From the NCBI GenBank assembly GCA_050049995.1, contig JASFVE010000029.1, positions 1 through 24,514 of the forward strand: a DNA stretch of 24,514 nt. The letters are read 5' to 3'. This stretch comes from Chlamydiota bacterium (lineage in GTDB: Bacteria; Chlamydiota; Chlamydiia; Chlamydiales; SM23-39). Both the position numbers and the translations under genes were made by a program. The notes beneath the pieces are model-generated. The model saw only the letters and a list, made by a program, of their open reading frames with translations, ran no database searches and was not told the origin of the DNA. Below are positions 16,211 to 17,164 of this stretch, piece after piece; the stretch's first letter is position 1, and each line of letters begins with the position of its first letter.

Positions 16211-17164
16211 ATGTCAGATCGTGATGAAGTCTATGATCCTCAGAAATGTGATGAAGTAACTACTTATGTACCTAACCAAATAGATCCTAAAGATGTCAGT
16301 GTAGCAGCTAAGTATTATGACCTTGTTACCGACTTTTATGAAGTAGGCTGGGGTAAGTGCTTTCATTATGCTCCACAAGGAAAAGGGGAGACATACGAAG
16401 AGGCTATTTTAAAATATGAAATGAACTTGGCTAATGCTATTAATTTAAAACCAGGAATGAAAGCATTGGATGCTGGTTGTGGTGTAGGTGGACCTATGAT
16501 CAACATTGCTAAAGCTACAGGTAGTGAAATTACAGGTATTACTATTTGTGATTATCAAATTAAAAAAGGCAAAAAAAATGTAGAAAAAGCTGGTCTTTCA
16601 GACAGGTGCAAGCTTGTTTACGGTGACTTTATGAAAATGGATTTTGAAGATAATAGTTTTGATGCCATTTATGCCCTTGAGACTACCTGTCACGCACCTA
16701 ATAAAACCGAGTGTTTTAAAGAAATGTTCAGGGTTTTGAAGCCTGGTCATTTTTTTGGAGGATATGAGTGGTGTGTAAAGCCAAACTATGACAAAAACAA
16801 TCCCGAACATTACAAAACAATCCAAATGGTTGAGCATTCAACGCAAACTCAAAAAACAGCTACCTTTGAAGAGGTTAATCAAGCATTAAAAGATGCTGGG
16901 TTTGAGCTTTTGGAAGCTCGAGATGTATGCACTCCAGGTCATTCATGGTGTGGGCCTTTATATAAAAGACTTCGCCGAAAAAAGCTTATTCGAAAGATAA
17001 CTGACTTTACTTTAGCTATTGCGGAAAAACTTAAAATGGCGCCAAAAGGCTCCTGTCAAGTGGCTTCTTATCTCGAGGAAGGAGCAGCAGCTTTTATAGA
17101 AGCAGAAAAGCTTGATGTTTTCACACCTAATTATTTTTTCTTAGCTAGAAAACCTATTAACTAA
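16211..17164 (+). CDS. Sterol 24-C-methyltransferase (ERG6/SMT family) homologue
   Basis: YYDLVTDFYEVGWGKCFHY (region I), LDAGCGVGGP (SAM binding), YALETTCHAP (region III), RVLKPG..F.GYEW (region IV), and SMT C-terminal APKGS and FTPNYFFLARKP. Confidence 0.9.
   Translation: MSDRDEVYDPQKCDEVTTYVPNQIDPKDVSVAAKYYDLVTDFYEVGWGKCFHYAPQGKGETYEEAILKYEMNLANAINLKPGMKALDAGCGVGGPMINIAKATGSEITGITICDYQIKKGKKNVEKAGLSDRCKLVYGDFMKMDFEDNSFDAIYALETTCHAPNKTECFKEMFRVLKPGHFFGGYEWCVKPNYDKNNPEHYKTIQMVEHSTQTQKTATFEEVNQALKDAGFELLEARDVCTPGHSWCGPLYKRLRRKKLIRKITDFTLAIAEKLKMAPKGSCQVASYLEEGAAAFIEAEKLDVFTPNYFFLARKPIN

Follow-up and report, generated by a model that had tools for sequence, protein, structure and literature searches.

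A divergent stand-alone sterol C24-methyltransferase homolog from a chlamydial genome and its possible cooperation with an ERG4-type reductase

Chlamydiae are obligate intracellular and none of them, as far as the passages covered of PMC10070321 go, is known to make sterols. In that study, Brown et al. (2023) showed that bacterial sterol C24-methyltransferases (SMTs) methylate sterols in vitro, and the SMT of a freshwater chlamydial MAG, described there as having no other sterol genes, made 24-isopropyl sterols. A second chlamydial SMT copy makes C28 products only (Brown and Welander preprint, 10.64898/2025.12.19.695621), and both published chlamydial enzymes methylated sterols in vitro (PMC10070321; 10.64898/2025.12.19.695621). 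That chlamydiae may methylate host-acquired sterols was already raised in 2023, with the questions of whether and why they do so left open in the parts of the paper covered (PMC10070321). According to the preprint, Gly249 (yeast numbering) is needed for C30 (isopropyl) products in both enzymes mutated, Phe at 81 or 83 raises C30 products, and all four known propylating SMTs have G249 plus F81 and/or F83; the G249T mutant of the propylating chlamydial enzyme (Chl_SMT) yields C28 and some C29 products and no C30, and a second methylation is still possible with A, S, N or T as small residues at 249 (10.64898/2025.12.19.695621). The same source lists 25 residues common to functional SMTs, with F91 and G352 present in every SMT tested, and regards departures from the list as a warning that an SMT may not work on desmosterol and 24-methylenecholesterol; of the SMT homologs tested, 11 were inactive on these two sterols, including 4 that retain the conserved residues (10.64898/2025.12.19.695621).

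The DNA analysed here (the window) is a stretch of 24,514 nucleotides from the assembly of an uncultured environmental chlamydia (GCA_050049995.1, contig JASFVE010000029.1) that carries on its plus strand a gene (16211..17164) for an SMT homolog of 317 aa, P0001, predicted to be soluble and to adopt a class I SAM-dependent fold; its open reading frame starts with ATG and has AAGGGA 8 nt upstream. A preliminary description, made from the letters alone, had called it a stand-alone bacterial SMT, and profile searches bear this out: P0001 scores 55.3 bits with Sterol_MT_C (PF08498; cut-off 21.7, E 7e-15; 16967..17155) and 76 bits with Methyltransf_11 (PF08241), likewise above cut-off, and it reached no NCBIfam family at cut-off. 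All motifs quoted in that description are found at their residues on the plus strand, namely region I for sterol binding (YEVGWGKCFHY, aa 43-53, 16337..16369), region II for SAM binding (LDAGCGVGGP, aa 86-95, 16466..16495), which is wholly canonical (D125, G127, G129, G132, P133), region III (LETTCHAP, aa 156-163, 16676..16699), region IV (FRVLKPG, aa 173-179, 16727..16747; G179 = G217 kept), the VEHSTQ segment (aa 207-212, 16829..16846) and the C-terminal FTP...ARKP (aa 304-315). No other sterol gene had been seen in the window, and Pfam scans of its 20 further proteins indeed gave no sterol-family match. The SMT family search matched in none of 14 control genomes, and P0001 is the single SMT in its source genome (G000; 1.88 Mb, 122 contigs, 98.4% complete, 2.5% contamination). 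The best match to solved structures is a non-SMT (E 1e-23), no solved SMT structure being among the matches listed. An AlphaFold model (pLDDT 89.5, pTM 0.89), whose best Foldseek matches are MitM, AtmM, SpnF, TleD and RebM at 21-24% identity, confirms the predicted class I SAM fold and nothing more specific. Judged by its sequence, P0001 is a real bacterial C24-SMT homolog that stands alone. Scans for promoters and terminators around the gene stayed at chance level; an 8-bp perfect inverted repeat with a 5-nt loop (window 17179-17199), which the scan did not call a terminator, lies 15 nt past the SMT stop.

P0001 shares with yeast Erg6 and plant SMT1 (EC 2.1.1.41) the Methyltransf_11 and Sterol_MT_C domains, regions I-IV and five essential residues, and it is 42-47% identical to plant and algal SMT1-like proteins. 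It differs from these eukaryotic enzymes in having 38 fewer residues before region I than yeast Erg6, a clade-specific N-terminus and a segment before Sterol_MT_C that is 6 residues shorter, and in lying outside any sterol pathway. Like the SMTs of sponge symbionts and myxobacteria (Brown et al. 2023), to whose named contigs fetched here it is ~41% identical, it is a bacterial C24-SMT; many of those, however, adjoin an oxidosqualene cyclase and other sterol genes, whereas P0001 is alone and no cyclase was found in its genome. Of 2090 candidates, 1010 were homologs at E<=1e-20, and the informatively named ones among the best 120 are sterol or cycloartenol 24-C-methyltransferases. SMT-type matches reach E 1e-73 or better, as opposed to E 1e-23 for the best non-SMT solved structure, and by sequence the closest relatives of P0001 are SMTs rather than tocopherol, sarcosine or other methyltransferases. 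Two further sources (10.1101/2022.04.22.489198; PMC10968281), in the parts covered, leave this reading unchanged. A role as C4-sterol methyltransferase, as in nematode STRM-1 (compared by description; PMC6997595), is disfavoured because region I keeps the aromatic signature Y-E-x-G-W-G-x-x-F-H apart from position 83.

The nearest protein (97% identical) comes from the record Chlamydiae bacterium CG10_..._35_9, for which a literature search gave no match, and the next nearest (79%) from a Parachlamydiales record. We placed 73 of 123 aligned proteins (39 best, 3 further chlamydial-type and 31 chosen others) in a tree by a quick IQ-TREE search without a non-SMT outgroup; P0001 falls in a 34-row clade (SH-aLRT 100) that holds every named or genome-placed chlamydial protein of the tree. 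Inside it, P0001-P0010 form a subclade (SH-aLRT 98), joined by P0011 and P0015 (97), and a separate 21-row group (93) contains P0126, which has 10/10 of the residues listed by the preprint for Chl_SMT and serves as its stand-in for numbering only. P0001 has 2/10 of these residues and 48% identity to P0126 (~48-50% to the published-branch stand-ins P0126 and P0018). It resembles the published chlamydial SMTs (PMC10070321; 10.64898/2025.12.19.695621) in being chlamydial, in coming from a genome with no de novo sterol pathway found, in overall clade, in length class and in residue numbering (Y43 = yeast 81, 211 = yeast 249), yet it belongs to a separate subclade, is single copy rather than one of a tandem pair, has V83, Y91, T249 and E352 in place of F/Y83, F91, G249 and G352, and comes from a genome with an ERG4-type reductase while the published chlamydial MAG was said to be without other sterol homologs. 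P0001 thus appears from its sequence to be a further member of the known chlamydial SMT kind in a new branch, a subclade separate from the published one (about 50% identity); in the literature passages covered we found no published activity test of it, and the untested alignment rows of the preprint may include a member. Full length and an intact SAM motif are found in 9/10 subclade proteins. Chlamydial SMT homologs are rare (5/401 phylum genomes sampled and 5/103 family genomes, each count including the source genome), and of 32 pattern matches to possible viral carriers none was confirmed.

To compare single residues, yeast positions were converted to P0001 by subtracting 38 through position 268 and 53 in the C-terminal domain. 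The spacing 8-11-5-2 of G333, L341, G352, F357 and P359 is reproduced in P0001, and the two-residue gap at 249 that the preprint reports for contig LXNI01006544 falls in columns 211-212 here. All five residues essential in yeast Erg6 are kept (H52, D87, G91, P95 and E157 for H90, D125, G129, P133 and E195), as are Y81, G84-W85-G86 and F89. P0001 matches 23/25 residues common to functional SMTs, departing by F91Y (Y53) and G352E (E299; 17105-17107), and so falls outside the 'functional SMT' predictor of Brown and Welander (2025), which takes all 25 and is an empirical predictor rather than a family definition; the full set is present in 89/123 aligned homologs. Y53 occurs in 10/10 subclade members against F in 113/113 other aligned homologs, and E299 in 9/9 members that cover the position and 3/113 others. 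Among 149 distant representatives (the best 150 minus subclade member P0008), Y53 is seen in 7, V45 or I45 in 5, T211 in 4, T158 in 2 and E299 in none. The changes that are distinctive of the subclade in these alignments are V45 (yeast 83, where the aromatic is lost), Y53, T158 (instead of the usual A/S), T211/T213 and E299. Of the non-canonical motif residues pointed out in the preliminary description, V45, Y53, T158 and T211 therefore stand as distinctive, but C50 and L156 lie within the usual variation (Cys in 12/113 homologs outside the subclade and 11/149 distant representatives; Leu in 4/113 and 9/149), and the change at E299 had been missed. Its flagging of VEHSTQ as deviant was apt in that the T211 of this segment corresponds to position 249, which by the mutagenesis of the preprint governs repeated methylation. 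In genome G276, an SMT at L009:1501-2445 has Ala83 and Glu352 like P0011 and P0015 and yet keeps Gly249 and sits in the other chlamydial group of the quick tree, which would reflect either convergence or misplacement.

In contrast to the preliminary description, which had hinted at repeated methylation and a possibly unusual product profile, these residues point the other way. P0001 has T211 where propylating SMTs have Gly249, and Y43 and V45 where they have Phe at 81 and/or 83. With Thr at 249 and Val at 83, C30 'sponge biomarker' sterols made by repeated methylation are unlikely, and the combination of Thr249 with a non-aromatic residue 83 would predict fewer methylations, not more. Indeed, the G249T form of Chl_SMT made no C30 (10.64898/2025.12.19.695621), though the propylation predictors derive from mutants in other backgrounds and we carry them over to P0001 by inference. 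Since C30 products are unlikely, the suggested bearing on sterane biomarkers falls away and P0001 adds no likely source of the C30 sponge biomarker.

As to where a substrate might come from, the source genome (98.4% complete, 122 contigs) gave no match to SQHop_cyclase_C, SE, SQS_PSY, p450, FA_hydroxylase or EBP, and its sole FAD_binding_4 match reads as MurB rather than DHCR24. The hallmarks of bacterial de novo sterol clusters (oxidosqualene cyclase, squalene synthase and epoxidase in cluster or genome) returned 0 matches. Because no de novo sterol genes were found in a host-dependent lineage, the substrate of the SMT must come from outside. The idea of host-derived sterol alkylation gains support from a stand-alone homolog in a genome with no de novo sterol genes found, its general form having been published in 2023 (PMC10070321). 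The genome also had no match to the C-terminal domain of MetK (S-adenosylmethionine synthetase), and import of SAM is therefore presumed; a SAM carrier is known from chlamydiae.

The search for a cyclase and sterol reductases that had been proposed for this genome gave no cyclase and one reductase, an ERG4_ERG24 (PF01222) protein of 445 aa (G000:C6:33746-35083; 436 bits) that is the sole one present and has at least 6 hydrophobic segments. Yeast Erg4 saturates the 24(28) double bond made by Erg6. The chlamydial reductase has 58% identity with a Coxiella protein named delta24(24(1))-sterol reductase, against no more than 29-36% with the other chlamydial reductases fetched; phmmer gave 608 bits with the Coxiella protein and 262 bits with a solved delta14 reductase. 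Among its best 120 matches, whose names are source labels, most named ones are delta24(24(1))-sterol reductases, two are generic and one (P0158) is named delta14. By sequence it is of ERG4 type, nearer to delta24(24(1)) than to delta7 or delta14 reductases, and its dN/dS is 0.053. Coxiella CBU1206, matched to the Coxiella protein by name only, complements yeast erg4 according to a review (PMC5418226). Both P0001 and the reductase resemble CBU1206 and the chlamydial K00223/K00213 reductases as isolated late sterol enzymes in intracellular bacteria; for CBU1206 the literature passages covered mention no SMT partner, whereas here an SMT is present.

Reductases of the ERG4_ERG24 family are common in chlamydiae (139/400 genomes), as already noted in PMC9666466, but the ERG4 type is not (8 of 30 top-scoring loci fetched, the remaining matches all scoring lower; 5/103 family genomes). 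It is found in 3/7 SMT-bearing chlamydial genomes, namely G000, G401 of the same genus and G113, and was not found in the carriers G158, G276, G031 and G427 (79% complete), of which G158 (96% complete) is the closest other-genus carrier of the SMT subclade. Co-occurrence in the phylum sample has p 0.003 with the source genome and about 0.07 without it, kin not being independent. The pairing is therefore not obligatory. Neither did an operon link to sterol genes hold, as neighbours vary among the loci inspected in the subclade and its sister clade (L002, L003, L006-L010, L042, L051-L053, L055-L057, L059, L060, L064); when 87 SMT loci were searched with the reductase by BLAST, only L098, L099 and L122 matched, none in the chlamydial clade, and no reductase adjoins a chlamydial SMT locus. 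Among the papers listed by our literature searches, none deals with a chlamydial SMT-ERG4 pair. At L004:271-1386 we noted a gene that by eye resembles a GDP-mannose 4,6-dehydratase and is followed by the ERG4-type reductase.

Since Erg4 acts after Erg6 in yeast, SMT and reductase form a logical sequence, and their presence in one genome suggests a two-step remodelling of scavenged sterol. We consider it probable that the SMT methylates C24 of a host delta24 sterol to give C28 and at most C29, not C30, products, which the ERG4-type reductase of this genus would then reduce. Host sterol would reach the bacterial envelope, where the soluble SMT with imported SAM may methylate C24 at the delta24(25) side-chain double bond by the usual carbocation mechanism; the product would be mainly a C28 (24-methylene) sterol, perhaps with some C29, whose 24(28) double bond the membrane-bound reductase could saturate to leave a saturated 24-methyl sterol. 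The likeliest purpose would be tailoring sterol of the bacterium's own membrane rather than the host's; manipulation of host membranes, as suggested in the preliminary description, found no support, P0001 having no hydrophobic segment and no sign of export. More tentatively, and with the odds against it, the divergent SMT and the reductase may be a minimal two-enzyme module of the genus that turns scavenged host precursors into saturated 24-methyl sterol, with V83, Y91, T249 and E352 adapting the SMT either to end at the 24-methylene stage or to use a new acceptor; the 25-residue rule would then be broken. An oxygen-free, anaerobic version of sterol remodelling was dropped, as neither of two genus genomes had an [FeFe]-hydrogenase match; COX1 gave no match and cytochrome bd is present in the source genome.

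Other readings of the same divergence deserve weight. A subclade retuned to another acceptor, be it a linear host triterpene such as squalene, another prenyl chain or a narrow sterol class (4,4-dimethyl or 24-alkylated), would fit the subclade-wide changes in or near the sterol-binding regions (Y53, V/I45, T158, T211/T213, E299) together with strong selection, which shows that the SMT has some function, and it has a precedent in Botryococcus, where SMT homologs with variant sterol-binding domains (TMT-1 to 3, compared by description only) methylate squalene or botryococcene (PMC3533583). We nevertheless regard it as unlikely given that Y81, G84-W85-G86, F89, H90 and E195 are all kept, that Tyr at 91 also occurs in 7/149 distant representatives, that the chlamydial sister enzymes are genuine sterol methyltransferases (PMC10070321; 10.64898/2025.12.19.695621) and that the presence of a sterol reductase in this genome suggests that sterols are handled. 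Less probable still seems an SMT that methylates host sterols repeatedly to give C29-C30 or other unusual side chains: one sister chlamydial SMT does propylate, A, S, N or T at 249 still permit a second methylation (10.64898/2025.12.19.695621), and Val83 could free space in the pocket, but P0001 combines T249 with Y81 and V83 instead of the G249 plus F81 and/or F83 of known propylating SMTs and shares only 2/10 of the Chl_SMT residues.

The patchy distribution (5/401 phylum and 5/103 family genomes) and the two departures from the functional-SMT residue set might also be read as marks of a relic that an old gene transfer left behind, decaying or without catalytic function. The selection data make this very improbable. 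Between P0001 and its 97% ortholog there are 52 synonymous and 13 non-synonymous differences (dN/dS 0.058, Nei-Gojobori), a ratio below those of all 6 neighbouring genes compared (0.084-0.221), and the 79% ortholog gives 0.124 with dS near saturation; such purifying selection, along with full length and intact SAM motif in 9/10 subclade proteins, indicates that the gene is maintained. GC (0.371) and GC3 (0.259) match leuS and ispG and thus give no sign of a recent horizontal arrival. Returning to a sterol-directed C24-methyltransferase as the favoured reading, the genome, with an SMT and the type of reductase that follows it in yeast, offers a concrete and testable route by which an intracellular bacterium might remodel sterols without synthesis. 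As the subclade is under strong selection despite changing two residues invariant in the tested set, it is a natural test of the 2025 residue rules for predicting SMT activity from sequence.

Among the 20 other window proteins scanned are ispG, leuS and waaA as well as a NUDIX hydrolase, a phosphatase and a pair of ankyrin proteins. Synteny with the 97% relative extends from leuS through a ferric-reductase-like gene, with the exception of one ORF upstream of the NUDIX gene, where the window (14529-15515, minus strand) and L002 (4021-5283, plus strand) have different ORFs on opposite strands. As these ORFs differ between otherwise syntenic genomes, the slot upstream of NUDIX-SMT appears to be a fast-turnover position. 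A 221-aa protein with no Pfam match (20033-20698, minus strand) has a 34%-identical homolog in the 79% relative (L003:7973-8569), 1.6 kb past the SMT, and an ORF of similar appearance follows the SMT at L051:2453-3052; being the only neighbour seen to be kept across genera, it suggests an orthologous locus.

Elsewhere on the minus strand, tandem ankyrin-repeat proteins of 556 and 983 aa (2103-3773 and 3866-6817) resemble each other over a C-terminal stretch of ~100 aa, for which Pfam gave no match, and look like chlamydial host-interaction proteins. Two tandem small hydrophobic paralogs (17590-18000 and 18075-18488, minus strand) are 33% identical and have no Pfam match. Next to them lies a dual-specificity phosphatase-like protein (18613-19461, plus strand) with an HCQAGKGRS motif and a hydrophobic N-terminal stretch, whose dN/dS of 0.22 is the highest among the genes compared. 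A metallo-beta-lactamase-fold hydrolase (411-1454) is directly followed by a DOT1-like methyltransferase (1456-2106, both on the plus strand), and at the far end (20834-24492, minus strand) a P-type cation ATPase that the end of the contig probably truncates, a ferric-reductase-like flavoprotein and a DUF4396 protein stand in a row.
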